The notes below the pieces were generated by a model. That model did not search any database and was not told where the DNA came from. It saw only the letters and a list, made by a program, of their open reading frames with translations. The position numbers and the translations under genes were made by a program. Shown here piece by piece: positions 1-17,700 of a stretch of 32,000 nt of DNA. Origin of the DNA: Polynucleobacter sp. MWH-UH25E (GTDB taxonomy: Bacteria; Pseudomonadota; Gammaproteobacteria; Burkholderiales; Burkholderiaceae); the NCBI RefSeq assembly GCF_018687095.1, contig NZ_CP061286.1, positions 768,576-800,575 on the forward strand, in the 5' to 3' direction. How positions within the stretch are numbered: the stretch's first letter is position 1; each line of letters opens with the position of its first letter.

Positions 1-45
1 CGGCAGATTTAAGTGGGTGTGTAATAGAGTGTCGTTTTAAACGAC
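1..45 (+). repeat. Right-hand part of the ~100-bp junction element (cut by the window edge), ending in palindromic core GTCGTTTTAAACGAC at 31..45
   Basis: Hand alignment of 1..45 to 7042..7086 gives about 36/45 identities. The 15-mer has perfect 7-bp inverted arms around one central base. Confidence 0.85.
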
Positions 46-69
46 AGAATAAATAGCTATGAAGAATGC

Positions 70-798
70 CTAAATTTCTAACAAACCTCGCTTCGCAAGG
101 TAGTGAACAAGAATGCCAAATAGCACCGCAATTCCGACATTCCAAACTGCTAGACCTGCAGTTGCCAAAACTATAAAGCGGTCTGCCTTTTCTGATGAGG
201 TGTCTCTGCTACCCAAGGCGAGTTGAAGTCCAGCGAAAAAGAGGATGACACCTAAAACACTTGATGGGAATAGTTGAAAGATTGTGCTGATGGATGAAGG
301 TAAAACTACACCAGCAACCAGCAAGATGCATCCAAGAATGATTGATGAACCGCCAGTCCTTGCACCGAATTGAATATGCCCAGCCATACCACCTGCACCA
401 TGACACATTGGTATACCGCCAATTAGGCTAGACCACACATTCATTAAGCCCGTAGATAAGGCTACTGTTCTTTCTTTGATTGGTCTATCAGGGAATAGGT
501 GGTTATTTTCTTCGATGATAGATATAAAAGCATTTCCAAAGGTAAGCGGAAGTTGCGGTAATGCCAGCAGAATTAAGCCAAGCCATAAATCATTTAAGGT
601 CAATGCTTGCCACTCAAATGGTGGAATAACAAATTCAGGCTTAATGTCATGCAGTTGGCTTAATAATTCAGGCTTATCAAATAGGGCAATTCCAAAGCCT
701 GCCGCTAGTAAGATAAGCATGGCTGGAACCTTTGGTCGATTTAGCAATCCCAATGTAAGCATCAGCAATACTCCAGCAATGTAGGGGCTGCTTCTCAT
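70..798 (-). pseudogene. Probable 5'-truncated sulfate/molybdate-type (MOT1/SulP-like) membrane transporter fragment
   Basis: The 242-aa ORF is polytopic and hydrophobic with a GGIPMCHGAGG-type motif. It looks like only the C-terminal two thirds of such transporters. Its start abuts an opposite-strand gene fragment head to head. Confidence 0.45.
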
Positions 799-1078
799 GA
801 GGCGAATAGCTGATATTTCAGAGGCTATTGCAAGACAACTTGGCTGGGATGAAAGTCGTATTCATGGCTTGAGAATGGCAGCCTTAATACATGATATTGG
901 TAAAGTATCCATTCCTTCGGAGTTGCTAACGAAACCCTCCAAGCTTTCAGACTTGGAGTATGCAATGATGAAGGAGCATGTAAAAAACGGATATCTAATT
1001 TTGAAAGATATTCCGTTTGTATGGCCGGTAGCGGAGAGTATTTATCAGCATCATGAACGAATGGATGGCTCAGGATAG
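797..1078 (+). pseudogene. HD-GYP domain phosphodiesterase fragment
   Basis: It contains HDIGK and HHERMDGSG, then a stop codon exactly where the GYP residues should follow. It is only 93 aa, with no receiver or N-terminal part. Its ATG overlaps the start of the minus-strand fragment by 2 nt. Confidence 0.6.
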
Positions 1079-1266
1079 GCGACAGCGCATAGCACGTGCG
1101 CAGCAGTCATTGGCACGTGCTACTGCACCCACCACTACGATTTAACAGATTTAGACATCCTAAAAACAGGATTAAAACCCGTAGCCACAACGGTTTGAAC
1201 TATTTGATAGAGTCAGCCACAGCCTGCACATTCACACAGCACCACAGTCAATTTGCTACAATTCTT

Positions 1267-1310
1267 AGTTCGGCGAATTAGCTCAGCTGGTTAGAGCGAC
1301 GGAATCATAA
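1267..1310 (+). repeat. attL-like direct repeat: 5' half of the tRNA(CAU) gene up to the anticodon loop, plus 5 upstream nt; a diverged tRNA-like tail follows (tRNA remnant)
   Basis: It is identical to 17817..17860 except for one position (c/t in the D-loop). After ...ggaatcataa the sequence diverges, keeping only weak resemblance to the tRNA 3' half. Confidence 0.8.
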
Positions 1311-1489
1311 CTCGTAAGGTTCTTAGGTTGCCAACCCTTTTCCCAATAAAATCAATAACTTAGAAAACCATGGTTTTCGCCGTGCTACACACCGTGTGAC
1401 ACACCGCCCGAAAAGTACCGAAGAATAAGGCTTTCGTGGAAGAAACCCTTTAATCATATGGCTCAGAGCGGAGGGTGGTGGCGAGATTT

Positions 1490-1504
1490 GTCGTTTAAAA
1501 CGAC
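1490..1504. repeat. Palindromic core copy GTCGTTTAAAACGAC
   Basis: Perfect 15-mer, about 180 bp inside the left island end and 88 bp upstream of the DUF2806 ORF. Confidence 0.9.
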
Positions 1505-1591
1505 GCTATAAATACTCCCCTTTAAATTCAATCAAATTTAAATTCCTGGATATAAACTGAATCAATTGAATGGAGTCGACAAGAGGGTTAT

Positions 1592-2584
1592 ATGACGTTC
1601 CCTGGGGAGCAATTAGTTATCAAGTTATGGGATAGCCTCATCGACAAGGGTGTCGGCTCTCTATTAAAGCCCTGGCAGATTAGAAGAGAGGGGCAGGCAA
1701 TGATTGATGTCAGAAAAGCAGAGATGCTTCAGATGGCTCAAGTTGAGCTGGATGCCCTTGCAATAAAAAGAGGCGAAAAGACTTTGTTGCCCAGCGGTGA
1801 AATTATTGACGTTGATAGTAAGCCTGGAAACCAGTTAACTATTGGGTTTATTAGCGGCAAGTCAATGCAAGCAATAAAAGCTGAAGAAATTAGAAAAGAG
1901 GTCAGTGTTAACAAGGCAATTCACTATGCTGAGGAAGAGTTGTTGCGGGATTCTCAAGAGCCATCAGATAAGACAATTGATGGTGACTGGTTGCTGAGAT
2001 GGAGAGATGGGGCGTCATCCGTCTCTTCTGAGGAGTTAATTAGCTTATGGGGCAAGGTATTAGCAGGCGAATCCAAGGGGCCAGGCACATACTCATTAAG
2101 AACTTTAGATTTTTTAAAGCACCTCAGTAAGGATGAGGCTGCTTTGATTGAATCAATAATGGCATTTGCATATGAAGGTTTTATTTATAGAGGTGACGAG
2201 GAAATACTAAAGGCTAATAACATCACTTTCGATAAGTTGCTCAATTTGCAAGAGTTGGGATTGCTTTCTGGAGTTGATACTTATGGCCTTGAGAAGAACT
2301 GGAGGAGTAGTTCGAAGGATGCATTTACGGTGGCAATTGTTTCAAATGAAAAATTAATACTAGCCACAAATCCAGATTCTGAAAGGGTATTAAAAATACA
2401 TCCAGTTTGTCTGCTGACATCTATAGGTCTTCAACTTTATAGCTTAATAAAAATACCCCCGAATCTTGGCATGATGAATGTGATTGCCGAAAAAATAAAA
2501 TCACAAGGATTTGATGCTCAGGTTGGCGATATTGTGGAAATCTCCGGAAGCAAGATCACATATAAAAATTTAATGCCAATCTAG
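1592..2584 (+). CDS. DUF2806-like protein
   Basis: 330-aa ORF with an AGAGGG RBS. It has the N-terminal LLKPWQIRREG... motif and the central W..LAGE...PG.YSLRTL.FL..LSK.EA pattern that I associate with DUF2806. Confidence 0.6.
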   Translation: MTFPGEQLVIKLWDSLIDKGVGSLLKPWQIRREGQAMIDVRKAEMLQMAQVELDALAIKRGEKTLLPSGEIIDVDSKPGNQLTIGFISGKSMQAIKAEEIRKEVSVNKAIHYAEEELLRDSQEPSDKTIDGDWLLRWRDGASSVSSEELISLWGKVLAGESKGPGTYSLRTLDFLKHLSKDEAALIESIMAFAYEGFIYRGDEEILKANNITFDKLLNLQELGLLSGVDTYGLEKNWRSSSKDAFTVAIVSNEKLILATNPDSERVLKIHPVCLLTSIGLQLYSLIKIPPNLGMMNVIAEKIKSQGFDAQVGDIVEISGSKITYKNLMPI

Positions 2585-2592
2585 GTTTTCTT

Positions 2593-2692
2593 TCTCGGAG
2601 TAGTAATAGATCGTACTAATATTTACCCCAAGTAATACAGGGGTGTAGGGCTGATTAAAGCGGGCGTGTAACAAAGTGTCGTTTAAAACGAC
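2593..2692 (+). repeat. 100-bp junction element copy A (left box GTAATAGATCGTACTAATA at 2603..2621; core palindrome at 2678..2692)
   Basis: Ungapped hand alignment to 6987..7086 gives about 76/100 identities. The ends are conserved, the centre is variable, and the box-to-core spacing is 75 bp in both. It lies just 3' of the DUF2806 ORF. Confidence 0.85.
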
Positions 2693-2734
2693 ATTTTTAC
2701 GCATTTTTTACACTAAAAGATTCAAAATGGTTGC

Positions 2735-4234
2735 GTGGAAATAAAAGCAACCAAATTCAATAGCGAAACTCGCCCAATTATTTCGGGCCTGATTGCTATA
2801 GCCATTTCATCTGTCTTAACGCTGATCTGTACTCCGGCTATAGGTGTGGTGGAGTTAGCCAATATTGTCATGGTGTTTTTGCTCAGTACCTTTTTGGTGG
2901 CAATCACGCTTGGCAGAAATGCCGCCATAGTTTCAGCATTTTCTAATGTGGCCTTCTTTGATTTCTTTTTTGTGCCACCACGATTTTCGTTTTCAGTTGA
3001 TGATGGTCAGTACCTCATTACCTTTTTGGTAATGCTGATTGTAGGTTTGGTGACAGCGCATCTAGCCGCCAAATTAAAAGATCAAATTAAAGATGTATTG
3101 GCTAGAGAGAGGCTTGCTAAGGCGCTTCAAAATTTGTCCCGAGGACTTTTTAGTGCCTCAACCGAAGAGCAAATTATCCAAGTTGCCAAAGCCACGCTAG
3201 AAAAGCCTATTGGTGTTGATATTGAGCTGTTTTTGACTGATAGCCCACAAGAGCTCAAGAAATCCAAGTTTGACTCTCAGGCAATCACATGGGCTATCCA
3301 AAGTGGAAATCGCATCTTTCATGAGATAGATGACTTTGATGGAAGCTCAATCATATTCATTCCAGTTCGTGCTGAATTAAAAACATTTGGTATTTTGATT
3401 GCGTCTGATCCCACTAGATCCATTAGAAAACATGGCTTAGATGATTTACTTCAAACGGCATCTAATCTGATTGCCTTGGCTGTAGCCCAATTACGCTCAA
3501 TCAAGTCTGAAGAAGCCAGCAAAGTTGAGGCCGCTACAGAAAGATTAAAGAGCGCCATTCTTTCATCGTTATCCCACGATCTTCGTACGCCTTTGACAAC
3601 GATGATTGGTTTGGCCGAAAACCTTCAGGCTCGTACCCATGGATTAGATGAAGAAAGCAAAAAAGACCTTGAGACAATTCGAGGTCAGGGAATGCGTTTG
3701 GCAAACATGATTGGTAATTTGCTAGAGATGGCAAGGCTTCAAACACAAGGCCCGACTTTGAAAAAAGAGTGGCAACCCATTGAAGATGTTTTGGGTTCAA
3801 GCATCAAGCACTTCAATGAATCATTCGCAGATAGGAAGGTAGAGCTTCATCTACCGGCCAACTTGCCACCCATGTATTTTGACGAAGTTCTCATTGAAAG
3901 AGTCTTATCTAATCTTTTGGAGAACTCGGCGAAGTATTCCAACCTAGATGCGCTTATTGATATTGAGGTTGCTGTGAGTTCGAAGAGCTTAACCATCTCT
4001 GTAAAAGACTCAGGCAAAGGATTTAATCAAGACCCCGAAAAGCTATTTGAGATGTTTGCTAGAGGCATTTCAGATACTAAGCAAACTGGCATGGGTGTTG
4101 GATTGGCGATCTGTAAAACCATCGTTGAAGCGCATGACGGAAACATATCGGTAAGAAATAATTCAAATGGTATTGGGTCAACGATTGAATTTACTTTACC
4201 CATATATCCATATCCTGAGTTGGATAAACCATGA
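2735..4234 (+). CDS. Sensor histidine kinase, KdpD-like but lacking the N-terminal KdpD/Usp sensor region (DUF4118 TM block, GAF-like region, HisKA, HATPase)
   Basis: It has the FFDFFFVPPRFSF membrane motif typical of the KdpD TM domain, an H-box SHDLRTPL, and G-boxes DSGKGF and GMGVGLAICK. The GTG start lies 43 bp after the repeat core. Confidence 0.8.
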   Translation: MEIKATKFNSETRPIISGLIAIAISSVLTLICTPAIGVVELANIVMVFLLSTFLVAITLGRNAAIVSAFSNVAFFDFFFVPPRFSFSVDDGQYLITFLVMLIVGLVTAHLAAKLKDQIKDVLARERLAKALQNLSRGLFSASTEEQIIQVAKATLEKPIGVDIELFLTDSPQELKKSKFDSQAITWAIQSGNRIFHEIDDFDGSSIIFIPVRAELKTFGILIASDPTRSIRKHGLDDLLQTASNLIALAVAQLRSIKSEEASKVEAATERLKSAILSSLSHDLRTPLTTMIGLAENLQARTHGLDEESKKDLETIRGQGMRLANMIGNLLEMARLQTQGPTLKKEWQPIEDVLGSSIKHFNESFADRKVELHLPANLPPMYFDEVLIERVLSNLLENSAKYSNLDALIDIEVAVSSKSLTISVKDSGKGFNQDPEKLFEMFARGISDTKQTGMGVGLAICKTIVEAHDGNISVRNNSNGIGSTIEFTLPIYPYPELDKP

Positions 4235-4926
4235 GCACCAATCTTCAAACTAAAAAGGTTCTTGTTATTGAGGATGACGCTCAGATTCGAGACCTGATTG
4301 CTAAGGTAGTCAGTGGAATGGACTTGAGCCCCATACAGGAAAGCACTATAGAAGGTGGTCTGAAGATTGCCGCTTCCAATAAACCCGATCTAGTGATCTT
4401 GGATTTAGGCCTTGTCGATGGCGATGGTATCGAGTTTATTACTGGCTATCGTGCGTGGTCTTCAAACCCCATCTTAGTTCTATCCGCTCGCATTGTCGAA
4501 CATGAAAAGGTCAAGGCGCTTGATGCTGGAGCAGATGACTATTTAACTAAGCCATTTGGCACCGCAGAGCTCATGGCAAGACTGCGGGTGTTATTGCGTC
4601 GTCAAAACAAAGCTGAATCTAATACGCCCAAATTTATTTTTGGGGATATTGAAGTGGACTTAAGTAGCCGAAAAGTAAGCAAGGCAAATGAAGAAGTGCG
4701 TCTCAGTAAAACCGAGTATCAATTGCTCAATGTGTTGCTTTTGAATCAAGGCCGTGTTGTTACCCATCGTCAATTATTAAAAGAAGTATGGGGCGGACAG
4801 CACACTGAAGATAGCCATTACCTACGTATTTATATGGGGCATCTGCGTCAGAAATTAGAAGATGATCCAGCAAAGCCCAAATACCTTCTCACAGAAACTG
4901 GTATTGGATACCGCTTAGATATTTAA
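4231..4926 (+). CDS. OmpR-family response regulator, KdpE-like
   Basis: Receiver domain (DLGLVDGDG, KP) plus a winged-helix C-terminus (TETGIGYRL). Its ATGA overlap with the kinase stop indicates translational coupling. Confidence 0.85.
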   Translation: MSTNLQTKKVLVIEDDAQIRDLIAKVVSGMDLSPIQESTIEGGLKIAASNKPDLVILDLGLVDGDGIEFITGYRAWSSNPILVLSARIVEHEKVKALDAGADDYLTKPFGTAELMARLRVLLRRQNKAESNTPKFIFGDIEVDLSSRKVSKANEEVRLSKTEYQLLNVLLLNQGRVVTHRQLLKEVWGGQHTEDSHYLRIYMGHLRQKLEDDPAKPKYLLTETGIGYRLDI

Positions 4927-4946
4927 CTCAAAACAGAGAGAGCATC

Positions 4947-6905
4947 ATGGAAAAAATTATTAATTTTTTTAGAGGCAAGGCATTGGATCCAATGGATCCT
5001 AAGACTCGTCATGCGATCGCTATCATTCCCCTTTTAGCGTGGGTGGGCTTGGGCGCTGATGGTCTCTCGTCATCCTGCTATGGTCCCGAAGAAGCCTTTT
5101 TGGCCTTGGGAGCAAATCATGGCCTAGCTATCTTTCTGGCACTAGTTACAGCATTAACTGTTTTTATTATTGCTTTAGGCTACAACCAAATTATTGAATT
5201 GTTTCCGACTGGCGGCGGTGGATACCGAGTTGCCACAGCCTTGCTTGGATCTAAGGCGGGCTTAGTTTCGGGATCAGCGTTGTTGGTCGATTATGTTTTG
5301 ACTATTGCGATTTCATTGGCAAGTGGAGTAGATGCCGCATTTAGTTTGATTCCCCCAGAGTATCAGGATTACAAACTAATGGTCGAGTTGGGGTTAGTCA
5401 CCTTTCTTATCTTTTTGAACTTTAGGGGCATTAAAGAATCTATTGTTGTCTTGCTTCCAATATTTCTAGGATTTTGTATTACACATGCGGTATTAATTGT
5501 TTATGGCATTAGTGTTCATGCTCCAGATCTTGGCAATGTGATGCCTAATGCGATTGCCAATACTCAAGCATTGAGCGGTGATATTGGTTGGATTGCGGTA
5601 GCAGCATTATTTTTAAAGGCATACTCATTAGGCGGCGGTACATACACTGGAATTGAAGCAGTCTCTAACAATGTAAATACTCTGGCCGAGCCAAGGGTTC
5701 CGCATGGTAAGCGTACGATGTGGTACCTAGCTTTTTCTCTAGCTTTTACTGCTGGCGGCATTATTCTGCTCTATATGCTTTGGGGCGCAGAAAAAGTTGA
5801 TGGCCAAACTTTGAACGCCACAGCCTTTGGAATGATTATTGATCACCTCAATCCAAACGGTGGTGGTATTAATACGATTGCTTTAGCCACAGTTTTATTG
5901 CTAGAAGCTGGATTGCTATTTGTTGCGGCGCAGGCTGGCTTTTTAGATGGCCCTACTGTGTTATCCAATATGGCGGCAGACTATTGGGTGCCAAGACAGT
6001 TTCGAGAGCTTTCAAGTCGTTTAGTAAGACAGAACGGCATCTTGGTGATGGGTATTGCGGCCTTTCTAATTTTGATTTTTACAGGAGGCTCCGTAGCAAC
6101 CTTAGTAGTTCTTTACAGTATTAATGTGTTTTTAACTTTCAGCATGTCATTGTTTGGTATGTCGGTTTATTGGGTTAAACATAGCAAAGACAAAGGCTGG
6201 TTTAAGCATTTTTTATTAAGTGCGGTTGGTTTTATTGTTACGGCATCTATTTTGATGGTCACCATTTATGAAAAATTATTCGATGGTGGTTGGTTAACAA
6301 TTCTTGTGACAAGCGTAGTAGTTGTTCTTTGCTTGTTAACTAGAAAACACTATGAAGCATTCAGGGTTGAGCTAAGCAAGGCGGATGAGGCATTTCCGGA
6401 CAACTTGGTTCAGTCATCAAAGAGTGATATTCCTGCTCTCGATAAAACAAAGCCAGCCGCAATTGTGTTGGTGAGCAGGCATCGTGGAGCCAGTATTCAT
6501 GCCTTGATGTGGGCGATGAGATTATTTCCACACTATAAGAATTATGTGTTTGTTGCGGTTGGTGAAGTAGACGCGAGTAGCTTTGACGGGCATCAAAAAG
6601 TAGAGGCGCTAAAAGAGCAAATGGAAAAATCCATGTCTTACTATGTCGATTTTTGCCATCAACATGGTTTGGCCGCCACTTATAAGATTGGTTTCGGTAC
6701 CGACCCAATCAAAGAGTTTATGAAGCTAACTGATGAAGCCTATCAAGAGTTTCCAAATGAGAGCATTTCATTTGCCAGTAAGTTGCTCTTTGCGAAAACT
6801 AACTTCTTTACTAAGTTCCTCCATAACCAGACTCCATTGGAAATTCAGGAGCGACTTCATTTCAGCGGTCGTCAAATGATTTTGTTACCCATGAGGGTTG
6901 GATAA
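4947..6905 (+). CDS. APC-superfamily transporter with a C-terminal cytoplasmic domain, KimA-like (putative K+/H+ symporter)
   Basis: 652 aa. The motifs FFRGKALDP...GADGLSSSCYGPEE, FPTGGGGY, LLVDYVLTIAISLASG and LKAYSLGGGTYTGIEAVSN match my recollection of B. subtilis KimA (YdaO). Confidence 0.6.
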   Translation: MEKIINFFRGKALDPMDPKTRHAIAIIPLLAWVGLGADGLSSSCYGPEEAFLALGANHGLAIFLALVTALTVFIIALGYNQIIELFPTGGGGYRVATALLGSKAGLVSGSALLVDYVLTIAISLASGVDAAFSLIPPEYQDYKLMVELGLVTFLIFLNFRGIKESIVVLLPIFLGFCITHAVLIVYGISVHAPDLGNVMPNAIANTQALSGDIGWIAVAALFLKAYSLGGGTYTGIEAVSNNVNTLAEPRVPHGKRTMWYLAFSLAFTAGGIILLYMLWGAEKVDGQTLNATAFGMIIDHLNPNGGGINTIALATVLLLEAGLLFVAAQAGFLDGPTVLSNMAADYWVPRQFRELSSRLVRQNGILVMGIAAFLILIFTGGSVATLVVLYSINVFLTFSMSLFGMSVYWVKHSKDKGWFKHFLLSAVGFIVTASILMVTIYEKLFDGGWLTILVTSVVVVLCLLTRKHYEAFRVELSKADEAFPDNLVQSSKSDIPALDKTKPAAIVLVSRHRGASIHALMWAMRLFPHYKNYVFVAVGEVDASSFDGHQKVEALKEQMEKSMSYYVDFCHQHGLAATYKIGFGTDPIKEFMKLTDEAYQEFPNESISFASKLLFAKTNFFTKFLHNQTPLEIQERLHFSGRQMILLPMRVG

Positions 6906-6957
6906 GGCATCCTAGGTTTTGGTTCTATTCCGCCCCGGGCCACCAAGAATCATCAAT

Positions 6958-6978
6958 ACCACCTTCGGGTGGTTTTTG
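6958..6978 (+). terminator. Rho-independent terminator after the transporter gene
   Basis: ACCACC-TTCG-GGTGGT hairpin followed by TTTTT. Confidence 0.7.
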
Positions 6979-6986
6979 ATTTGGAG

Positions 6987-7093
6987 TCTCGGACTGGTAA
7001 TAGATCGTGCTAATAATTTAATTAGACAACACAAGGATGCTGAGTTGATTTGAGTGAGTGTGTAACAAAGTGTCGTTTAAAACGACACTTTGT
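6987..7093 (+). repeat. 100-bp junction element copy B (left box at 6997..7015) ending in a 29-bp perfect palindrome at 7065..7093 (core at 7072..7086)
   Basis: ACAAAGTGTCGTTT-A-AAACGACACTTTGT has 14-bp arms, verified base by base. It sits between the plus-strand transporter cassette and the minus-strand AAA+ operon. Confidence 0.9.
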
Positions 7094-7417: not shown

Positions 7418-8089
7418 TTAGAAAGTTGGTTGAGACTGCTTGGTGCGGCGAGCTTGACGTGAAATATTATTGATAACATTTCGTAGCGAGCCGTTAGCGC
7501 CCTTAATTATTTGAATTAACTCTTCGTCGTTTAAAACGACTTCATGATCGGCTGTGATCTTATGGGCTAAAGGCAGATAAGCCTCTGGATCAGCAGCATT
7601 CATTTCGACTAGTACACAACGATCAAGCAGGCCTTTATCCAGCTTGGATACGCTATTGGTTGTTAAAACAAATACACCTCGAGTGGTATTAAGTGATGAT
7701 TTAAGACTCTCTTGAGCTTGCTGTGTCAGCACATCCACTTCGTCAATAATGATGTAGTGCTTACCGCTAGCATTTAATGGTTGGGTCGCAAGAATCTTAT
7801 CGATTGTTTGCGATACCTGTACACCATTAAGGCCTTGCCGGCATCCAATGTAGTACTCGGGGAGAGCTTGGGCTTGACCAGTAGTGCCTACTTCAATCGC
7901 ATTTGGAAGAATGTTGGCCAGAGTTGTCTTCCCAGTTCCATAAGCCCCATATAAAAGTACACCGCTTTTTCCGCCAAACGGTAAAGGCTGGGCGCCACTT
8001 ACAATATCCTCAATACGCAGACGTGACTCATTGCTTCCGTAAATTATGTCGGCAGTGGATGTGGGTTTGAATTGTCCTTCGTTATACAT
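7418..8089 (-). CDS. AAA+ ATPase, clamp-loader (RFC small subunit / DnaX-delta')-like, short form
   Basis: Walker A GAYGTGKTT and Walker B IIIDEVD. The AQESLKSSLN...VLTTN...LLDRC pattern mirrors the RFC/DnaX boxes (SRC-like DRC). RBS is TAAGGAA. Confidence 0.75.
   Translation of the reverse strand: MYNEGQFKPTSTADIIYGSNESRLRIEDIVSGAQPLPFGGKSGVLLYGAYGTGKTTLANILPNAIEVGTTGQAQALPEYYIGCRQGLNGVQVSQTIDKILATQPLNASGKHYIIIDEVDVLTQQAQESLKSSLNTTRGVFVLTTNSVSKLDKGLLDRCVLVEMNAADPEAYLPLAHKITADHEVVLNDEELIQIIKGANGSLRNVINNISRQARRTKQSQPTF
7526..7540. repeat. Perfect palindromic core copy inside the AAA+ ATPase CDS
   Basis: GTCGTTTAAAACGAC read on the minus strand gives codons 184-188, V-V-L-N-D. Confidence 0.9.
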
Positions 8090-8143: not shown

Positions 8144-8938
8144 TTAAGCCGCTACAGGCTTTCCATCCGCATCATTTGCGGCCTCAATTTCCTTCTTAGC
8201 TTTTGCCTCAATCTCTTTGGATTTGGCATAAGTTGCAAGTAATGCAGCATTAACAATGCCGTCTGAACGTAAAACGGTATAAATCCCATACTTGCCCTCT
8301 GGGGTTTGCTTTCCAAGTAACACAACTTTGTCGCCTGCGTACTCTGCGTCAGCTGTATGTGATAACAGGGCCGATTCAGCGTAACCAATAAATGAGCGGC
8401 CGTCTAAGATCGCACTCATTTCTTCAGCCTTAGCTTTTGGAGGAATAAAAGTTTTGCTCTGAGATAGGCGAATTTCTTGAACCCCACCTTTGGAGGCTAT
8501 CCATGTAGGTAGATCCAAGATGCTTACATTTTGTTTTTTGGCTTCGCGAAGCACAATTGAATAGCTACTAACGCGGCGACGGTTATCCATTCCAAAGACT
8601 GCGCGAAGAACACGGGTCTCTAATGGCGCCTCTTTGTTATAGCGATAGCCACGCTCTTTATAGAAGTTGGCTAATGCAATTGCACGTTGCTTTGCTGCGG
8701 GCGCAGGGAGTTCGCCGCAGAATGCTTTGCATTCCTGTAAAACAGATCCAAGTTCCTCATTGCTTTTGCGAAATGAACCTTGCTCCCAGTGAATGCGAGC
8801 TGCTTCCATTGCATTTAGGGCTTCCACTGAGTAATGCAGAACAGTTTGCTTCTTAATTGCCTCTGGGTTGGCAGCATCATTTGCCGATGTGGCTGATGAC
8901 ACCTTTACTTCAATTGCTTCATTTAACAGTGCTTCCAT
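8144..8938 (-). CDS. Hypothetical 264-aa protein, first gene of the AAA+ operon
   Basis: Long ORF with an AAAGGAAA RBS and a Lys/Ala/Glu-rich C-terminal tail. I do not recognise the family. Confidence 0.65.
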   Translation of the reverse strand: MEALLNEAIEVKVSSATSANDAANPEAIKKQTVLHYSVEALNAMEAARIHWEQGSFRKSNEELGSVLQECKAFCGELPAPAAKQRAIALANFYKERGYRYNKEAPLETRVLRAVFGMDNRRRVSSYSIVLREAKKQNVSILDLPTWIASKGGVQEIRLSQSKTFIPPKAKAEEMSAILDGRSFIGYAESALLSHTADAEYAGDKVVLLGKQTPEGKYGIYTVLRSDGIVNAALLATYAKSKEIEAKAKKEIEAANDADGKPVAA

Positions 8939-9066: not shown

Positions 9067-9849
9067 ATGGAAAGAAATTACCTGGCAAAAATGCCACTTG
9101 TATTTCCGAAAGGCTTTAAATCAGCTCAAATAAGACTGCTCAAGCGCAGCCCTTATTACTGGTGGTGGCAATATCTTCGAAGAAATGAGGCCTACATAAA
9201 GTTTTGCGAAAAAGGCGGTAGAGGTAAGCTTAGAAAGCTTTACGAAGACTTTGGGGATGTTCGTGATCCAGATTTTGGGAGATGGTGGCTAACTTCAATG
9301 GATCGGCATAAGGATGGAGTTAAAAGAGGCGCCTATCTATTTAGAGAGACAACAACAGACTTTGATGTGATTAAGCTAAAAAATAAAAGTGATTGGTTAC
9401 CAAATTGGAATGAAGATGTAATGATCGTTGCAATCAATATGAAGCAAACCAAGCGTGAAATAAAAAAACTTTTTAGTTGGCTATTGGAGGATGAGCATCC
9501 AGGTAAGCCAGGAAAACAACCCATGCGGGAAGCTGCTGCTAGCTCTACAGCAAGGTATAAGTTGCATAGAAACTTTAGCGTTGATAACTTGGAAAAAACT
9601 TTAGCTATTTACGATCTTTGCAAAGAGAACGAAAAGCTGCCTACAAAAGAGCAAAGGAGCTATTGGGAAATTGGAGAAAGCATTCGCTTAGTACCTTCAG
9701 CCATGCCACCAACAGACAAGAAGTATTTTTTGATGGATGAACCAAAAAAAAGACACAACACTATGACTATGGCTGTAAGTAGGTATTACAAGGCAGCAAA
9801 AATCATGATCGACAATACTGCATTGGGTGTTTTCCCCAAAAGCACATAA
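9067..9849 (+). CDS. Hypothetical protein with an N-terminal WWWQYLRRNEAY motif, reminiscent of the DUF6499/DUF2285 (RovC-like) regulator domains of mobile elements
   Basis: 260-aa ORF. The motif resembles the W-E-F-L-R-R-N-P-x-Y signature. Its stop codon directly abuts the stop of the convergent recombinase gene. Confidence 0.5.
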   Translation: MERNYLAKMPLVFPKGFKSAQIRLLKRSPYYWWWQYLRRNEAYIKFCEKGGRGKLRKLYEDFGDVRDPDFGRWWLTSMDRHKDGVKRGAYLFRETTTDFDVIKLKNKSDWLPNWNEDVMIVAINMKQTKREIKKLFSWLLEDEHPGKPGKQPMREAAASSTARYKLHRNFSVDNLEKTLAIYDLCKENEKLPTKEQRSYWEIGESIRLVPSAMPPTDKKYFLMDEPKKRHNTMTMAVSRYYKAAKIMIDNTALGVFPKST

Positions 9850-10416
9850 TTAGACTAGTTCAACAGCCGCTTTCATCTGGTCTGGGCTAGAGTACAAATA
9901 TCCAGCAGTGGTGCTGATGTTGCGATGGCCAGCCAATGACTTAAGAATATGTATGGCTGTACCTTTATTCGCCAATGAGGTTAAAAATGATCTTCTTCCC
10001 GAATGGGAGCTACATCCCTCAAGTCCAGCACGTCTGTAAAGAAAGTGAAAGTACTGCGTAAGCGTATTGGCTGAGAACCCGGCTCGTTTTTGGGTATAGA
10101 ACAAAGGCTTGCTGGTGTCGGTAATGCGTATCCACTTAATGTATTGAGCAATCTCCTTTTGCATACGAGCATTGATATACACAGTTCTGGCGTATTTACC
10201 TTTAGTTTGTTCTGGCTTTAGACGGATTTCATCTTTAATCGTTCCACTGTCGTTTAAAACGTCGCAAATGCGTAGAGCGGCAACTTCTCCCACTCTCATT
10301 CCCGAGTAGTGCGTTAAAAGTAAGGCGCAGCGATTGCGGGCTGAATGCTTGCGTGTAGCGATGTGATCTAGGACCCTGCGTAATTCTGCTGCGTTAAGTG
10401 TTTTTGCTTGTGACAT
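9850..10416 (-). CDS. Tyrosine recombinase, catalytic domain only (188 aa, FimB/FimE-sized)
   Basis: Catalytic residues are recognisable: R in GMRVGE, K in TKGKYARTV, HSGRRS (H-x-x-R), GHRNISTT and the Tyr in AGYLY. There is no N-terminal core-binding/SAM-like domain. RBS is GGGAG. Confidence 0.8.
   Translation of the reverse strand: MSQAKTLNAAELRRVLDHIATRKHSARNRCALLLTHYSGMRVGEVAALRICDVLNDSGTIKDEIRLKPEQTKGKYARTVYINARMQKEIAQYIKWIRITDTSKPLFYTQKRAGFSANTLTQYFHFLYRRAGLEGCSSHSGRRSFLTSLANKGTAIHILKSLAGHRNISTTAGYLYSSPDQMKAAVELV
10249..10263. repeat. Palindromic core copy (14/15) inside the recombinase CDS
   Basis: GTCGTTTAAAACGTC read on the minus strand gives codons 52-56, D-V-L-N-D. This is the same reading frame as the ATPase copy. 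Confidence 0.8.
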
Positions 10417-11238: not shown

Positions 11239-11913
11239 TCTTACTTTGTGGGCGAACTGCTTTCGCCCTGTGTTTCGCTCTCGCTCACACTTTTCTTTCT
11301 TTTTGTTTTTTTACTTTTGTTAGATTCAACCTACACTGAGCCTTAAGCAACAGGCTCAGTTATAGAAAAGTTCTTTTGTTGAGTTCTTTACTACACCACT
11401 TATGGCACAACCAAATTGGTTAGGGCGGTTTCGCGATCTCCTTTTACGTGCGGTTGAAATGAAACGCAACATTTACAACAGCAGTAAGTGGCTACCGTTG
11501 TAATGTTTGCAAGTTGCTGTGTAAGGCAGGGCTTGCTCGTGACGCATAGTGTTAACTATCGTCTTGTGCTGATATGCATTCTTGTATCAATTAGCTAGCA
11601 AAACTAACGGCATCCATAGGAATGGGTAGTGATATCAAGTCTCTGCTACTGCCCAGAATTTCCATCCCCGCGATCACCAATGTCCAGGTTTAGGGCGACA
11701 TAACAACTGAGTGTCGCAACTCTTTTATCAGTAGTAACTTAGTACAGGACGGTTATTTGCCTGTTACTAAAGTTATTTAGCAAAACCTAATAAAAGAAGA
11801 ACAAATCTGGCTTAAATCCTTTGGTTCTGGCAGATATTGGCTAAAAGAGGTTGTCCAACCAAAACTTGTGACCATAAATTAAGTGTGCCCATTAACTACA
11901 AAGGAGAAATGCA

Positions 11914-12351
11914 ATGAGCACATTAAACAGTTTGAAAATGGTTAATTCCAAAAAGCCAACTTCCATCCCGCCAATCTTGCAACGTAGAAATAAACTTTCT
12001 ACAAAAGTTTGGGAGCAGATTCAGCTAGCGAAAGCAAATAAAGAAGGTGGCACATTTACTGTGAAAAAGTTCAAAACAGTAAAGGACGTAGATGGCGCTC
12101 GAAAAACTATTGAGCATCAAAAACGTGTACGCCAGTGGTGGTTTGTAGCTAGCGACGGCAAGGTTTGCTTAAACGTTCGCTATGGGAGCCGCGTGATTGA
12201 GTTTGCGAAGGGGAAAACAGCCGTAGAGGTTAACTCCGCAGATGAGCTCATCAAAGCCTTGGAGATCATTAAAGGTGCAGTAGAAGCAGGAGAGCTTGAT
12301 AGTCAGATTGAGCAAGCCAGCGGCGCTGTACGTGCAGGGTTCGGCAAGTGA
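11914..12351 (+). CDS. Small island protein, possibly DUF6641-like
   Basis: Strong AAGGAG RBS. The pattern LNSLK...PPILQRRNKL..K.WEQIQLAKA...WWF...GKVCLNVRYG..VIEFAKGKTAVEV resembles a family I recall from proteobacterial genomic islands. Confidence 0.6.
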   Translation: MSTLNSLKMVNSKKPTSIPPILQRRNKLSTKVWEQIQLAKANKEGGTFTVKKFKTVKDVDGARKTIEHQKRVRQWWFVASDGKVCLNVRYGSRVIEFAKGKTAVEVNSADELIKALEIIKGAVEAGELDSQIEQASGAVRAGFGK

Positions 12352-12395: not shown

Positions 12396-12407
12396 TGGAT
12401 TGATTAA

Positions 12408-13061: not shown

Positions 13062-13394
13062 TCAATACCTTATTTTGATTCTTGGCATCCATTTAATAGC
13101 TAATCGTTTTGAATGTCTATGCACTTTGTGTTGCTTACGTAAACCAGAGCCAACATTTAAAACCCTAGTTAATTTAATTAATATGGAGCAACCTTCATTT
13201 CTCGCGATTACTTTATAGACAATCCGTGAATGACTATGTGGGCTATGAGTTTTATATTCAGCCACATATTCCAAGTAAGAAACCCTCAGAATATTTTCAT
13301 TGCTTTGAGTAGCGCCTTGTAGACTCTGTTGAAATTTCTCCTGTGCTGATAACTTAGAGTCAACAGAGGTTGGCTTCAATTTCTTAGCTCTCAT
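13062..13394 (-). CDS. Hypothetical 110-aa basic protein downstream of the integrase
   Basis: It has a GAAGG RBS and is on the same strand as the integrase. The palindromic core lies between the two genes. I do not recognise the family. Confidence 0.35.
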   Translation of the reverse strand: MRAKKLKPTSVDSKLSAQEKFQQSLQGATQSNENILRVSYLEYVAEYKTHSPHSHSRIVYKVIARNEGCSILIKLTRVLNVGSGLRKQHKVHRHSKRLAIKWMPRIKIRY

Positions 13395-13412
13395 TGGCTA
13401 CCTTCGTTATTG

Positions 13413-13427
13413 GTCGTTTTAAACGAC
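13413..13427. repeat. Palindromic core copy GTCGTTTTAAACGAC, 6 nt past the integrase stop codon
   Basis: Perfect 15-mer followed by ACACATAC. Confidence 0.9.
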
Positions 13428-13433
13428 ACATAC

Positions 13434-14726
13434 TTAACCCGCCAACTTTTCAGCCGCCAATGTAGCTGTGAGCTTGCTGTAAAAGCGTTCCAGCATTTGT
13501 ACGGAAGTGCCCATTTGCTTAGCTAGCGTATGGATGTCCATGCCCCACTCAACTAAGCTAAATGTGGCGTAGGTGTGCCTGAAGCTATACATCGTGCGCT
13601 TATGCCCTGTAGTAGATAGCAACAATCCTGAATCTTTCATTAGCCACTTAAAGCTGCTCACAAAGTCATAAGGGCGCTCACCATTAGGATGTCGCCATAA
13701 AAACTCTTCACGCTTTTCTTCAAGCAATTGATCAAGAGTTAAGTGATCCCATTCTGTAAAGCGAGTTTTAAGCCGCTCTATTACTGGAACAGCTTCATGT
13801 CTTGCAATTAGCCAGCGAGCACCTGTTTTGCCATTCACCCATATGCGTAAGTACCTTACGCTCTTATCTGTATGCCACTCTAAATGGCGCCACTGAATAT
13901 TGAATGCTTCTGTGCCGTGACGCATTCCTGTAGCCATCAATATTTCGATGTAATCCCGAAGCAATAGTCTGCCAAGATGCGCTTCTTGGGTTTTGCCACC
14001 TTGACTCCAGGTTTTTAAGAACTCCAGCAAGTAGTCAATTTCTTGTCTGGTAAAGGCTGGCCTTGGGGTGCTTTTCTCACCCTTAGTGCCTAGTCTTGGT
14101 ACTGGGTGTTTATCGCTTAACCAGCCGCGCTTGATGGCCGAATCAAATACCCTGTTGTATGCAGAGAAGTGCGTCATCATCGTTGATCGCATGAGCTTGC
14201 GCTTCATCTTCTCTGCTCGCCACTGCTCATACTCGGCAATATCTTGGTGATTAATGCTGGTTAGGTGCTTCTTGCCAAAGAATGGGATGAGGTAGTTATC
14301 AATTACTGCGATGTAATCCACGTAGATCTTTTTACCTACGCCATTATCTAAATCTCCTTGTAGCTCGATTTTGGTTGATTCTGCTGCTGAATCAAAACGC
14401 TTATTAAGGGGTGGCAATCCCAGCTCTTCCATAAAGCGAGCTCTATCGTAAATATCGCCAGCTTTCTTTTTGGCGTATTCCAGATCTTCGTAGCCTGTGC
14501 TAACCCTATGCCACTTCTTGTCATAGAGCCTAAAGCGCATTTGCCACTGATTACTGCGCTCCCGCTTATAGAGGGTGATGTTGCCATCCCTCATATGGAC
14601 TAGCTTGCCAGTAGCTAAGTTTTCTAGATATTTAAGCTGAGGTGATTTTTCAGAGGTAGAGGTGCTTTGAAAGAAAAGGGCAAGCACTTCTGTTTCTTTG
14701 GGCATGTTTCTCTGGCTGAAAAACAT
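13434..14726 (-). CDS. int: Tyrosine integrase (phage-integrase family, 430 aa)
   Basis: The C-terminal catalytic domain has R in ATGMRHGTEA, H-x-x-R in YSFRHTYA and the Tyr in LERFYSKL. A long N-terminal arm/core-binding region is present. Confidence 0.85.
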   Translation of the reverse strand: MFFSQRNMPKETEVLALFFQSTSTSEKSPQLKYLENLATGKLVHMRDGNITLYKRERSNQWQMRFRLYDKKWHRVSTGYEDLEYAKKKAGDIYDRARFMEELGLPPLNKRFDSAAESTKIELQGDLDNGVGKKIYVDYIAVIDNYLIPFFGKKHLTSINHQDIAEYEQWRAEKMKRKLMRSTMMTHFSAYNRVFDSAIKRGWLSDKHPVPRLGTKGEKSTPRPAFTRQEIDYLLEFLKTWSQGGKTQEAHLGRLLLRDYIEILMATGMRHGTEAFNIQWRHLEWHTDKSVRYLRIWVNGKTGARWLIARHEAVPVIERLKTRFTEWDHLTLDQLLEEKREEFLWRHPNGERPYDFVSSFKWLMKDSGLLLSTTGHKRTMYSFRHTYATFSLVEWGMDIHTLAKQMGTSVQMLERFYSKLTATLAAEKLAG

Positions 14727-14737
14727 AGCTTAATTTC

Positions 14738-14780
14738 GGTGTGTAGGGTTGGGCAACCTAAAAATGTCGTTTCAAAAGAC
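14738..14780 (+). repeat. Degenerate junction-element right part, with degenerate core GTCGTTTCAAAAGAC at 14766..14780
   Basis: GGTGTGTAGGGTTG resembles GGGTGTAGGGCTG of copy A. Like the 13413 copy, the core is followed by ACACATA. It starts 12 bp upstream of the integrase start codon, and the core itself begins 39 nt from that codon. Confidence 0.6.
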
Positions 14781-14879
14781 ACATATAGCAGTCAATGGAC
14801 GATTGCCCAATCAGGTCTAGACAGTTATCAATCCCATAACTAAACTAAAAGAATTTAGTGGATTGCCAATAGGGTCTAT

Positions 14880-15179
14880 ATGAAGAGAATTGCTGTGATT
14901 TTATTCTTTACGCCAGTAGTTGGTTTTGCTCAGGCAGTCTATGGTCCACAAGGTCAGTATCAAGGTTATACCCAAACATCCCCAAGTGGCGTAACCAATT
15001 TATATAACGCTCAAGGTCAAAATGTGCAGTCATTCCAAACGGATAATGGCCAAACTAGTTTTTATTCGCCTCAAGGCCAGTATCAAGGTACAACTACTGC
15101 GCCTATAACTATGCAACCAAACACAACTATTAATGCGCCAAGACAAGCTCCGCAAGCGCCCGTAGTTAAGGGGTGGTAA
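14880..15179 (+). CDS. Small secreted Gln/Gly/Thr-rich repeat protein
   Basis: Signal peptide MKRIAVILFFTPVVGFAQA. The motif PQGQYQG occurs twice and AQGQN once. Confidence 0.55.
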   Translation: MKRIAVILFFTPVVGFAQAVYGPQGQYQGYTQTSPSGVTNLYNAQGQNVQSFQTDNGQTSFYSPQGQYQGTTTAPITMQPNTTINAPRQAPQAPVVKGW

Positions 15180-15182
15180 TTT

Positions 15183-16988
15183 TTGGATTTGAGTGCCATT
15201 AAAAAATCGAATTCATTAGCTATTGCTGCGCCAGAGTTGCTAGCAGAGTGGGATTATGAAAAAAACACCATTTCCCCAGCTGATATAGCTGCAGGAAGCC
15301 ATAAAAAAGTCTTTTGGAAGTGCGCTTGCGGTAATGGATGGTTGGCGGCGCCACATCAAAGAACAGTAGCTTCTAGAAAGAGGGATGGGAAATACTTAAC
15401 TGGATGCAAAGAATGTGCTCGTGAACGCGGGGCGGAGCAGCTTAAAAAGACAAAATTAGCTAAAGGGGTTTTACTTTTTGACAAATATCCAGATTTATTA
15501 GGTGAATGGGATTATCAAAAAAATTTAATCTCACCAGATCAGGTTACTGAGCACAATAACAATAAATTTTGGTGGAAATGCCGCCTAAATCATTCTTGGC
15601 AAGCAACGGCAAGTAATCGTGGGCATAACGCTAGCCGATGCCCTGATTGCAACCCTGCTACATCTCGAGCTGAGATTTATCTGTACTCAGAATGCAAGTC
15701 TGTCTTTCCCAATGTTTTATGGCGATCGAAAATTGATGGCAAGGAGGTTGATATCTACCTGCCTGATCATAAGATTGCTATTGAGTTTGATGGAGAATTT
15801 TGGCACAGAGAAAAGACTGTAAAAGATCAGCTTAAGTCAGATACATTACATGCCGCCGGAATTAAATTGATCAGAATTAGATCTGCCAAGAATATGCCAG
15901 CAGGAGGTATTGATGTAGTTTACCCAGAAGAAGCGAGGATGAATTATCAAGAGATTGCAAATGCAATGTTTGATGAATTGGCAATATTGGTACCTCTTAC
16001 AGAAGTAAAGGAGTATGCGAAAAACAGGCTGCAGCTATCAAAAAATCTCTATAACGAAATAGTTTCTAATTTGCCCGCTCCTCCCTATGAATTGTCTTTG
16101 GCGGCTCAATTTCCTGAGGTCGTAAAACAATGGGATGTCGAGAAAAATCTCCCGTTAACTCCTGAGTTATTTACAAAAGCCTCTGGATTTAAGATGTGGT
16201 GGAAATGTCCTCAAGGACACTCATATCAAGCGACTATCAAAAATAAAGTAAGTAACGATAGCGGATGCCCAGATTGCTATAGGGCATTGCAGGCGGAACA
16301 CGGAAGAATAAAAAAGATTGATGGGGTTTTTATTCCAGTGCCTAAAAAGCTGGTAGAACCAAGGATATCAAAAGAGAAACGCCCAAATGCAAGAAAATTA
16401 AATGCTGCACAGTATGAAGAGAAGGTTAGAAAATTTAATCCAACCCTTGTAGTTCGCGGGACTTATATTAATAGCGATCAACCTATTGATATTAAATGTA
16501 TGGCTTGCGGCAACGAGTGGAGTCCGATAGCCGGATCAATTATTAATAAAGGCGCTCAAGGCTGTCCTAAATGTGCAAGAGGACGCATAGCACTCGCAAA
16601 TTCAAAGGGCCCAGAAGAGTTTGCGAAAGAGCTAGCTTTAAAAAATACCAAAGTAAAGCAAATTGGTGCTTATGTTGGCAATAAGCAGAAACTTGAGGTT
16701 GAATGTCTGAAATGCGGCAAACATTGGCTCGCAATAGCCGGTGATTTATTGGCTGGACATGCTTGTATGTCTTGCTATGGCAAAGCTAAGAAGACAAACG
16801 AACAATTCATTGATGATTTAAGTAAGGTTAATTTAATGCTAGAGGTTATCGGAAAATATGAAACCTCAAAAACTCCAATAGAGATTCGATGCAAAGTCTG
16901 CTCTCATGTTTGGAGTACGAAACCTAATTACCTATTATCGGGATCTGGATGCCCGGTATGCGCTAGAAATAAGAAGTTAAGTAAATGA
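15183..16988 (+). CDS. Multi-zinc-ribbon protein with a central PD-(D/E)XK (DUF559/Vsr-like) nuclease domain
   Basis: Three W(D/E)Y.KN...WKC...CP.C units (DUF4379-like) and three C-terminal ...C..CG..W......L.G.GCP.C units. The central block VDIYLPDHKIAIEFDGEFWH is typical of DUF559/Vsr-type endonucleases. The TTG start lies 3 nt after the upstream stop, with an AGGGGTGG RBS. Confidence 0.7.
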   Translation: MDLSAIKKSNSLAIAAPELLAEWDYEKNTISPADIAAGSHKKVFWKCACGNGWLAAPHQRTVASRKRDGKYLTGCKECARERGAEQLKKTKLAKGVLLFDKYPDLLGEWDYQKNLISPDQVTEHNNNKFWWKCRLNHSWQATASNRGHNASRCPDCNPATSRAEIYLYSECKSVFPNVLWRSKIDGKEVDIYLPDHKIAIEFDGEFWHREKTVKDQLKSDTLHAAGIKLIRIRSAKNMPAGGIDVVYPEEARMNYQEIANAMFDELAILVPLTEVKEYAKNRLQLSKNLYNEIVSNLPAPPYELSLAAQFPEVVKQWDVEKNLPLTPELFTKASGFKMWWKCPQGHSYQATIKNKVSNDSGCPDCYRALQAEHGRIKKIDGVFIPVPKKLVEPRISKEKRPNARKLNAAQYEEKVRKFNPTLVVRGTYINSDQPIDIKCMACGNEWSPIAGSIINKGAQGCPKCARGRIALANSKGPEEFAKELALKNTKVKQIGAYVGNKQKLEVECLKCGKHWLAIAGDLLAGHACMSCYGKAKKTNEQFIDDLSKVNLMLEVIGKYETSKTPIEIRCKVCSHVWSTKPNYLLSGSGCPVCARNKKLSK

Positions 16989-17067
16989 CCTAGTGATTGC
17001 TTCTGCATTTTTCGATGCTTTTATGAAGTTCTATAAATATGTCGCTGCAGAACAAATTCACCAGTAA

Positions 17068-17310
17068 CTAGTCATGAGCTAGATCAACTTGCATTCTGTA
17101 GATAGAAACTATTCTTCCAATTGCGCCCATATATCCATTGCCACCTCTAATTGAAGATATGTTCCAGTTGCAGCCTAGTTCGTCTATCTCATGCCAATAA
17201 GGGAGAGGAACAATAACGGTGGCATTATCCTCGCGAATTTCTTGTATGTTGTTTACTTGCTGCTGGAGTTCAGTTTGAATTTGATCGGCAGCTAGAGTTG
17301 GTTTGGCCAT
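17068..17310 (-). CDS. Hypothetical 80-aa protein
   Basis: Supported only by the ORF. No clear RBS. Confidence 0.3.
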   Translation of the reverse strand: MAKPTLAADQIQTELQQQVNNIQEIREDNATVIVPLPYWHEIDELGCNWNISSIRGGNGYMGAIGRIVSIYRMQVDLAHD

Positions 17311-17685
17311 GAATTGTTTCGCATTTCATATTTTTTAAAAGAATGCTGCGGTAGGCGGAAACGGAAGCTGCCTCAATATCAACTTCTACTTCATAGTCTC
17401 CACCTAAGTGGTATGAAGGTTGGCAGGCTTAACTAACAACTTCCCGCATTACACCTTTCGGCTCCAGCAGTGACTGCCACCATAAGCTGGAAGTCGCTCG
17501 CTTTTTCACAAAGCGCCAACTTTTTGCGTTGTTTCCTTTTAACCCCTTTTAGTTAAGCTACCACGCTGGCAGGCGTGTATTGAGATGGGGCTAACAAAAA
17601 TTGTGTCATAAACACTCCTAAAATTAGCCCTAAATGGGCCATCTCATTCTAGCTATCCTTGTTACTAGATTTCAAGGGAAAAACC

Positions 17686-17700
17686 GTCGTTTAAAACGAC
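17686..17700. repeat. Palindromic core copy GTCGTTTAAAACGAC, with the conserved flank on its right side (inverted relative to copies A and B)
   Basis: Perfect 15-mer followed by AAACTTTGTGTT...GGTGTGTG, which mirrors the ACAAAGT...GTGTGT left flanks of the other copies. It lies 117 bp before the right island end. Confidence 0.85.

Follow-up and report, generated by a model that had tools for sequence, protein, structure and literature searches.

What acts on a short palindrome that recurs through the accessory part of a bacterial chromosome segment and is missing from its core part? The question is raised by 32,000 nucleotides (nt) of Polynucleobacter sp. MWH-UH25E (contig NZ_CP061286.1, positions 768,576 to 800,575), the whole of which we call the window, and by a mobile element in its left part. 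Pattern search of the window finds seven perfect copies of the 15-bp palindrome GTCGTTTWAAACGAC (starts 31, 1490, 2678, 7072, 7526, 13413 and 17686), one copy with a single mismatch at 10249 and one with two mismatches at 14766, where 0.01 ± 0.10 matches are expected by chance from shuffled sequence. Even with up to 2 mismatches allowed, no copy lies in the core half, 17701-32000; the half-site GTCGTTT occurs 10 times and AAACGAC 7 times in the left part, and neither occurs in the core half. An earlier reading made from the letters of the window alone (hereafter the sequence-only reading) had listed exactly these copies, had seen none in the core half, and proposed that they are crossover sites of a system that captures, excises or inverts modules. 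We conclude that the palindrome is probably the recognition site of a protein encoded by the element itself, and not a crossover site.

The limits of the element are set by a tRNA gene. Positions 1255-1310 and 17805-17860 are 89% identical and form a 56-nt direct repeat, made of the 5' half of tRNA-Met with 17 nt of upstream sequence, in agreement with the tRNA remnant noted previously. From the complete tRNA-Met and this remnant it follows that about 1311-17804 is an element integrated into tRNA-Met. Its gene content was taken from Pfam, PHROG and NCBIfam searches, and the two tyrosine recombinases of the sequence-only reading are there, as proteins of 430 and 188 amino acids (aa). The target and the backbone are:

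17822..17898, plus strand: tRNA-Met (CAT), the integration target, with 5' half and upstream region derived from the element
1255..1310, plus strand: displaced tRNA-Met 5' half with 17 nt upstream, the distal end of the element
7418..8089, minus strand: clamp-loader-like AAA+ ATPase of 223 aa, always adjoining o264
8144..8938, minus strand: o264, an orphan 264-aa protein with R157 in the motif GGVQEIRL
9067..9849, plus strand: o260, an orphan protein
9850..10416, minus strand: rec188, a 188-aa tyrosine recombinase consisting of the catalytic domain only, the most conserved backbone protein
11583..11722, minus strand: Polynucleobacter-1 RNA (RF01718), an Rfam match and backbone component
11914..12351, plus strand: DUF6641 backbone protein
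13434..14726, minus strand: INT, a 430-aa lambda-type tyrosine integrase

The N-terminal part of INT is predicted to be a beta-sheet plus helix, followed by core-binding and catalytic domains. Further orphan proteins of the element are o122, o110, o124 and o145. A protein match at 100% assigns the window to Polynucleobacter sp. MWH-UH25E, in line with the Rfam hit to Polynucleobacter-1 RNA. This RNA sits between DUF6641 and rec188, divergent from DUF6641, and is conserved in the mobile-element backbone; it is also found in L209 (5702-5838), L224 (2697-2831), L233 (1347-1485) and L239 (8612-8755), L numbers denoting other loci. The o260 slot is a hypervariable backbone position, holding unrelated sequence in elements whose adjoining rec188 proteins are 95-97% identical.

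On this map the palindromes occupy the following places, where att denotes the attachment site:

31..45: central T; closes a third, incomplete copy (2-46) of the tRNA-Phe-downstream repeat, which the start of the window truncates
1490..1504: 180 nt into the element from the tRNA-Met 5' remnant that marks the distal att arm, with the DUF2806 gene about 90 nt farther on
2678..2692: end of a 105-nt repeat (2593-2697), 43 nt upstream of a histidine-kinase gene
7072..7086: end of a 105-nt repeat (6987-7091), at the backbone position downstream of AAA/o122
7526..7540: inside the AAA+ gene, codons VVLND, at nt offset 549, a position occupied in several G-type lineages
10249..10263 (one mismatch): inside rec188, codons DVLND, at nt offset 153
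13413..13427: central T; 6 nt past the integrase stop and 19 nt ahead of the o110 start, a conserved position (INT-down)
14766..14780 (two mismatches): about 40 nt upstream of the integrase ATG, a conserved position (INT-up), perfect in L195, L196, L197 and L200
17686..17700: proximal att arm, 121 nt upstream of tRNA-Met, with equal spacing in L273 and spacing within 1 nt in L195

The copies at 31, 2678 and 7072 are thus the ends of a longer repeat of 45-105 nt, and a 29-bp extended palindrome lies at 7065-7093, where the arms had been called extendable. The two intragenic copies, 7526 and 10249, to which the sequence-only reading had alluded only indirectly, both read (V/D)VLND in frame; that at 10249 overlaps the invariant DVLN motif of rec188 and may be partly a coding by-product. 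The layout around 1490 is matched in L174, where a tRNA remnant is followed by a palindrome 192 nt on. Six copies have A at the centre (five perfect ones and the 1-mismatch copy 10249) and two have T, in agreement with the previous count; the 2-mismatch copy 14766 has C.

For comparison, we recovered about 100 related loci, 80 of them from a metagenome search with rec188 and more through integrase homologues, whose look-ups gave loci from Polynucleobacter, one metagenome-assembled genome (MAG) of the Ferrovaceae, and Rhodoferax. The loci have in common a backbone of DUF6641, often Polynucleobacter-1 RNA, rec188, the o260 slot, o264, AAA+ and INT. The logo of 175 distinct perfect sites carries information only in 17 bp, T-GTC[G/C]TTTWAAA[C/G]GAC-A, with twofold symmetry. 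The central base, which had been suggested to give each site a polarity, is divided 50/50 over all 175 sites and differs between orthologous sites of close relatives: at INT-up, L200 has T where L195, L196 and L197 have A. Coding copies must have T, since A would create a TAA stop there. A lox-, FRT- or dif-type layout, also suggested, calls for arms of 11-13 bp around a spacer of 6-8 bp; the 17 bp are too short for two arms and a spacer, since a 7-bp spacer would leave 5-bp arms, and neither a conserved spacer asymmetry nor junctions in the site are seen.

The rec188 loci hold 165 sites with at most one mismatch in 609 kb, and these fall into eight recurrent position classes: the att arm; about 40 nt upstream of the int ATG; just past the int or DUF6641 stop; rec188 offset 153; between rec188 and o260; the o264 start; AAA offset of about 549; and downstream of AAA. 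The backbone positions are the same across elements with only 45-80% protein identity. What changes is the palindrome itself, with one variant used throughout a whole element. Besides the G type, to which the window belongs, there are the C type GTCCTTTWAAAGGAC, some sites of a T type, and, as a separate variant, GCGTCGCTTAAATCGACGC. Locus L280 has yet another, CGTCTA-N5-TAGACG, at its att-arm, INT-up, DUF6641-down and AAA-down positions. Such concerted change points to a cognate protein that the element itself encodes. At the AAA offset the encoded peptide varies over the family (VVMSD, VDIAD, ATLSD and others), and VVLND with the exact palindrome codons occurs in several G-type lineages; palindrome codons in an otherwise variable peptide suggest selection at the DNA level inside a coding region.

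Where strand exchange takes place can be read from the differences between related loci. None of 23 clean insertion or deletion events has palindromes at both ends, whereas two of the 23 are bounded by tRNA-Phe fragments, as overlapping direct repeats of 25-26 nt; one of these is a 19-kb segment of L257, comprising an element and its flanking cassettes, that is absent from L167. The Rhodoferax element is likewise flanked by 47-nt tRNA-Phe repeats, and a 2.2-kb stretch shared by L097 and L189 at 98% identity has its left border inside a tRNA-Phe 3' end. For clean events the junctions thus lie in tRNA fragments and never in palindromes, and the sites are best read as a protein-binding network. 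This result does not bear out the proposed crossover role. The related claim that the motif marks module boundaries finds support. Homology breakpoints fall within 30 nt of a site in 55 of 487 cases, against 12.1 ± 3.1 for random positions (4.5-fold), and cargo between two sites is swapped among relatives, as for 14786-17682 of the window compared with L196, homology stopping within a few bases of the sites; in six replacement events palindromes stand at both ends. Copies also lie inside backbone genes. The enrichment is explained by conserved functional sites beside free cargo, and exchange at the sites would be compatible with it too.

The most likely palindrome-binding protein, and the best of those considered, is o264, a candidate picked out by how its sequence varies with site type. 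In alignments of G-type against C-type elements, rec188, DUF6641 and o260 have no discriminating columns, AAA has three, o264 four and INT many; with the C-type Ferrovaceae element added, AAA keeps one and o264 keeps four. That no rec188 column follows the concerted change from G to C argues against rec188 as the recombinase of these sites, a role the sequence-only reading had offered it. The o264 residue that stands out is 157, within the otherwise invariant GG[VI]QEI-x-L: 27 G-type loci have K or R there and 8 C-type loci have T, and the C-type element of the Ferrovaceae, which is independent and highly diverged, has S. The resulting table (27/0/0/8, plus L274) gives a Fisher p of 4e-8 without phylogenetic correction. 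Every complete element with palindromes has a member of the o264 family, and two relatives without palindromes, L275 and L279, lack one while keeping INT, rec188 and DUF6641. Clustered at 50% identity, the family has 1,103 representatives; of 139 that were aligned, 136 have R, K, S or T at position 157. Its conserved motifs are VFGxDRRRxSxY..LRxA and GGV[EQ]EI[RKST]L.

The binding-site reading is held as probable, and o264 as the binder with less confidence. Several observations weigh against this account. Sites of C type and T type are mixed in L239 and L240. INT still keeps four discriminating columns once the Ferrovaceae element is added, none of them in its N-terminal beta-sheet. The link at residue 157 comes from about 2-3 independent C-type lineages, and its statistics ignore kinship; a distant o264 in L281 has R at 157 and yet hybrid GTCT...CGAC sites, for which the prediction is ambiguous because they are hybrids. 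No match to o264 was found in Pfam, NCBIfam or PHROG, none by sequence in the PDB, and none by Foldseek with E ≤ 0.001; relaxed Pfam searches were empty for both o264 and o260, and a helix-turn-helix in o264 is suggested only by a model with a predicted local distance difference test (pLDDT) score of 71. Finally, some cargo sub-blocks in L196, L200 and L273 are split by a lone palindrome with no tRNA fragment, for which binding alone offers no simple explanation.

On balance, we propose that the 17-bp T-GTCGTTT-W-AAACGAC-A would be the site of a dimeric DNA-binding protein encoded by the element, most likely o264, which is always paired with the clamp-loader-like AAA+ ATPase. The sites form a network over both att arms, the borders just up- and downstream of the integrase gene, backbone promoters, gene ends and the interior of some genes. 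Binding may repress the integrase and backbone promoters, or build a nucleoprotein complex at the att arms, or both, and the AAA+ partner may remodel the att-arm complex; a regulatory or architectural role of this kind is what we infer by analogy with the operator networks of plasmids. Strand exchange itself would occur in the tRNA-derived repeat and be carried out by the 430-aa integrase. Two circumstances would bring palindromes to module borders: no conserved functional site lies farther out towards the free cargo slots than they do, and decayed attachment-site remnants that bear them persist between accreted cassettes. A bolder extension, which we think rather unlikely, is that the palindromes with o264 and AAA+ form a self-addressing system, in which a recodable 17-bp 'address' marks the element's DNA, insulates cargo slots, governs immunity or incompatibility among competing elements of the G, C, T and TA types, and possibly allows rec188 to exchange cassettes beside palindromes. 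If true, cargo would be handled much as in an integron, with a palindrome bound by protein in the place of attC.

The distribution of the motif agrees with a property of mobile and not of core DNA. Among the matches listed from a scan of 185,579 species genomes (one genome per species), clusters of the palindrome occur only in Polynucleobacter-like island loci, as the sequence-only reading had supposed in calling the motif restricted to the island; in these matches, Polynucleobacter genomes have one or two 8-kb site-bearing blocks each, and stretches with at least two sites are all from Polynucleobacter or an uncultured beta-proteobacterium, bar one pair in Corynebacterium. That pair, in Corynebacterium sp. 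YSMAA5_1_F9 (L176, 468-519), consists of two CGTCGTTTTAAACGACGG copies 37 bp apart in DNA of 65% GC, and is an unrelated operator-like pair that shares the 15-mer by chance. A scan of viral contigs gave 72 chance singletons and nothing more. The multi-site stretches are island arrays beside tRNA-Phe, where 8 kb can hold as many as six tRNA-Phe 3' fragments in tandem, and within them the palindrome has two fixed contexts: 17 nt upstream of a tRNA-Phe fragment, and about 100-160 nt downstream of one, where it lies 46 bp from a second palindrome, GTCCTTTAAAAGGAC. This tRNA-Phe-downstream element is present in many Polynucleobacter genomes. The spacing between palindrome and tRNA-Phe fragment is 48 nt in four plus-strand cases (L097, L149 and L189 twice), with L078 on the minus strand within 1 nt, and from tRNA-Met the palindrome is 121-122 nt away in the window as well as in L273 and L195. 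In L273 (Polynucleobacter sp. P1-05-14, 6917-11272), elements flank tRNA-Met on both sides, with an integrase of the window type (95% identical) 5' of the gene and a second integrase, of 433 aa, 3' of it; the cargo beside the tRNA consists of two one-gene cassettes, each headed by a palindrome and GGYGARTGGRTRGGGG. The family is one of tRNA-inserting mobile elements of freshwater Polynucleobacter, so far undescribed; it is common in that genus and is also present in at least one Ferrovaceae MAG. In the literature we found nothing on this motif, on palindromes in Polynucleobacter islands, or on Polynucleobacter-1 RNA.

Four other explanations deserve weighing. Lambda-family integrases have arm-type sites in both attP arms, each at a fixed distance from the core and one overlapping the int promoter region, and the palindromes could be such sites for the 430-aa INT, bound head to head by two N-terminal arm-binding domains in an intasome that also autoregulates int. 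INT, our second candidate binder, has the predicted beta-sheet-plus-helix domain at its N-terminus, a lambda-like three-domain model and a full-length alignment with lambda Int, and sites stand in both att arms at fixed spacing as well as directly up- and downstream of int. Within INT cluster 2, moreover, the beta-sheet is where the G and C subclades diverge most: its 26 positions hold 9 of the 38 discriminating columns. However, this pattern fails in the independent C-type Ferrovaceae element and in L209; L275 and L279 have a related INT and lack both o264/AAA and palindromes, so that palindromes follow o264/AAA and not the integrase; and perfect palindromes far from att, such as those inside AAA and at the o264 promoter, are unexpected, arm sites known so far usually not being palindromes. 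We regard arm-type sites as a credible reading, albeit an unlikely one. One specific proposal, that the Q/H position after a conserved Trp in the INT beta-sheet is a convergent specificity switch, was rejected on L209. The crossover model, with rec188 or INT acting at the palindromes in integron- or shufflon-like fashion, can draw on the breakpoint enrichment, on the six replacements with a palindrome at either end, and on the cargo sub-blocks divided by a palindrome alone, those of L273 each having an extra 16-nt conserved flank. It can also draw on the full-length alignment of rec188 to an invertase model of the FimB/E type, which stays below the cut-off (E 8e-12), and on the two gene orders, A and B, which differ by a single inversion between the backbone's flanking palindromes. 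Any given integrase clade has one order only, though, with no orientation polymorphism inside it, and active inversion at palindromes, part of the sequence-only reading, is rejected on that ground. Set beside the short conserved core with its free central base, the sites within backbone genes, the clean events with tRNA but no palindrome borders, and rec188 proteins that are up to 94% identical across site types, this leaves the crossover model improbable.

A host-encoded Polynucleobacter factor, for instance a nucleoid or silencing protein that marks foreign DNA, would account for the tRNA-Phe-downstream element, which has one C-type and one G-type site in many species whatever element adjoins, and for the sites carried by the integrase-less cassettes L097 and L189. 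We nonetheless think it very unlikely: site type tracks the element and not the genus, since the C type occurs in both Polynucleobacter and Ferrovaceae and both G and C types occur in Polynucleobacter, the sites of one element all share a type, and that type covaries with the element-encoded o264. Generic structural repeats, either selfish elements of the repetitive extragenic palindromic (REP) or miniature inverted-repeat transposable element (MITE) kind or bidirectional terminators, seem least plausible, and very unlikely. A loose terminator-like scan picks up two of the nine copies, and three copies end a longer repeat, but the bare hairpins are weak (-5.7 to -6.1 kcal/mol in four folded copies without extended arms), most copies have no U tract, and the GC-rich stem with U tract of an intrinsic terminator is not seen; a real terminator adjoins at 6958-6979, and some copies stand in frame inside genes. 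REP elements stand in hundreds of extragenic copies over a genome; here the core half of the window has none, and among the matches listed Polynucleobacter genomes show one or two 8-kb blocks each. Target-site duplications and a REP-associated tyrosine transposase (RAYT) are lacking. Fold energies and this distribution speak against the terminator/REP reading.

Besides its backbone, the island in the window carries cargo and the remains of other insertions:

1592..2584, plus strand: DUF2806 cargo gene
2735..6905, plus strand: cargo of KdpD-like kinase, OmpR-type regulator and 652-aa permease
14880..17310: cargo slot between the INT-up and att-arm palindromes, with o99, a 601-aa zinc-ribbon/CapR/restriction endonuclease (REase)-like protein and o80; other genes in relatives
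6906..6979, plus strand: tRNA-Phe 3' fragment (6906-6945) and intrinsic terminator (6958-6979), remnant of a tRNA-Phe-type attachment site
2593..2697, plus strand: diverged tRNA-Phe-downstream element (AGTCTCGGA...palindrome), direct repeat of 6987-7091
6987..7091, plus strand: second copy of the tRNA-Phe-downstream element
70..1078: fragments of genes for a MOT1-type transporter and an HD-domain protein, truncated and distal to the tRNA-Met remnant

The kinase, regulator and permease genes are bracketed by the two 105-nt repeats; together with 6906-6979, these repeats inside a tRNA-Met island look like a tRNA-Phe-type cassette nested in a tRNA-Met-type element. The 601-aa protein (15183-16988) contains four zinc-ribbon repeats of DUF4379, is homologous to CapR and has a weakly REase-like segment; it is probably a nuclease or defence gene. 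Cargo of the related elements L277, L278, L279 and L280 includes restriction-modification systems, an LlaJI/McrBC-like system and a BrnT/BrnA toxin-antitoxin pair. The gene fragments at 70-1078 are older island material distal to the element, and since they end in the palindrome at 31-45 the island runs on to the left of the window.

In its logic the family appears to resemble the tycheposons and additive genomic islands (Hackl et al., 10.1101/2020.12.28.424599; Layoun et al., PMC10872708). In both, a tyrosine integrase targets tRNA genes, including a tRNA-Met, partial tRNAs flank the elements, cassettes accrete in tandem beside the tRNA, the cargo is adaptive or defensive, and the host is a planktonic bacterium with a streamlined genome. 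The backbones differ, with primase/helicase modules in tycheposons and rec188, o260, o264, the clamp-loader-like AAA+, DUF6641 and Polynucleobacter-1 RNA here; the tRNA-Met type here targets the 5' half of the tRNA; and the dispersed palindrome network with lineage-specific variants sets the present family apart, 'palindrom' being absent from the texts of 10.1101/2020.12.28.424599 and PMC10872708. The tycheposon hallmark of an integrase at a tRNA with full and partial tRNA flanks is found in the window (17822-17898 and 1255-1310) and in Rhodoferax (its 47-nt repeats). INT and tRNA are 3 kb apart in the window, with a cargo slot between them, and adjoin in L275 and L187.

As a network of sites, the palindromes recall other systems. 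In KorB-OB of IncP plasmids and in ParB-parS, a short palindrome occurs about ten times over a mobile element that encodes its binder. As with KorB-OB, the eight position classes here include promoter-proximal, distal and intragenic copies, and site variants covary with an element protein, the predicted binder o264 (K/R at residue 157 with GTCG, T or S with GTCC). Unlike KorB and ParB, o264 has no ParB/KorB similarity in sequence or fold; its partner is a clamp-loader-type AAA+ and not a ParA-type ATPase, and the element is integrative. Integron attC sites, Acinetobacter pdif modules and the R64 shufflon (sfx/Rci) share with the window short repeats that border exchangeable blocks in a locus with tyrosine recombinases, and the sequence-only reading had drawn the parallel with integrons and pdif. 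The parallel ends there: a 28-34-bp two-arm core, R''/L''/L'/R' and XerC/D half-sites are absent, rec188 and INT score below integron-integrase cut-offs, the palindrome flanks have no attC core motifs (GTTRRRY), and the observed junctions lie in tRNA fragments. Extended attC-like flanks were also considered and rejected, the flanks differing between loci.

Polynucleobacter is among the most abundant freshwater bacteria, and its diversification has been attributed mainly to genomic islands (PMC5644125 and work cited there), the vehicles of which had not been described before. The present analysis delimits a family of such elements with a conserved backbone made almost wholly of unannotated proteins, and gives the orphan Rfam RNA Polynucleobacter-1 a genomic home. 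In metagenomes the palindrome offers an easy sequence tag by which these elements and their cargo slots can be found, and a palindrome code that shifts in step with one residue provides a testable candidate for a protein-DNA recognition pair.

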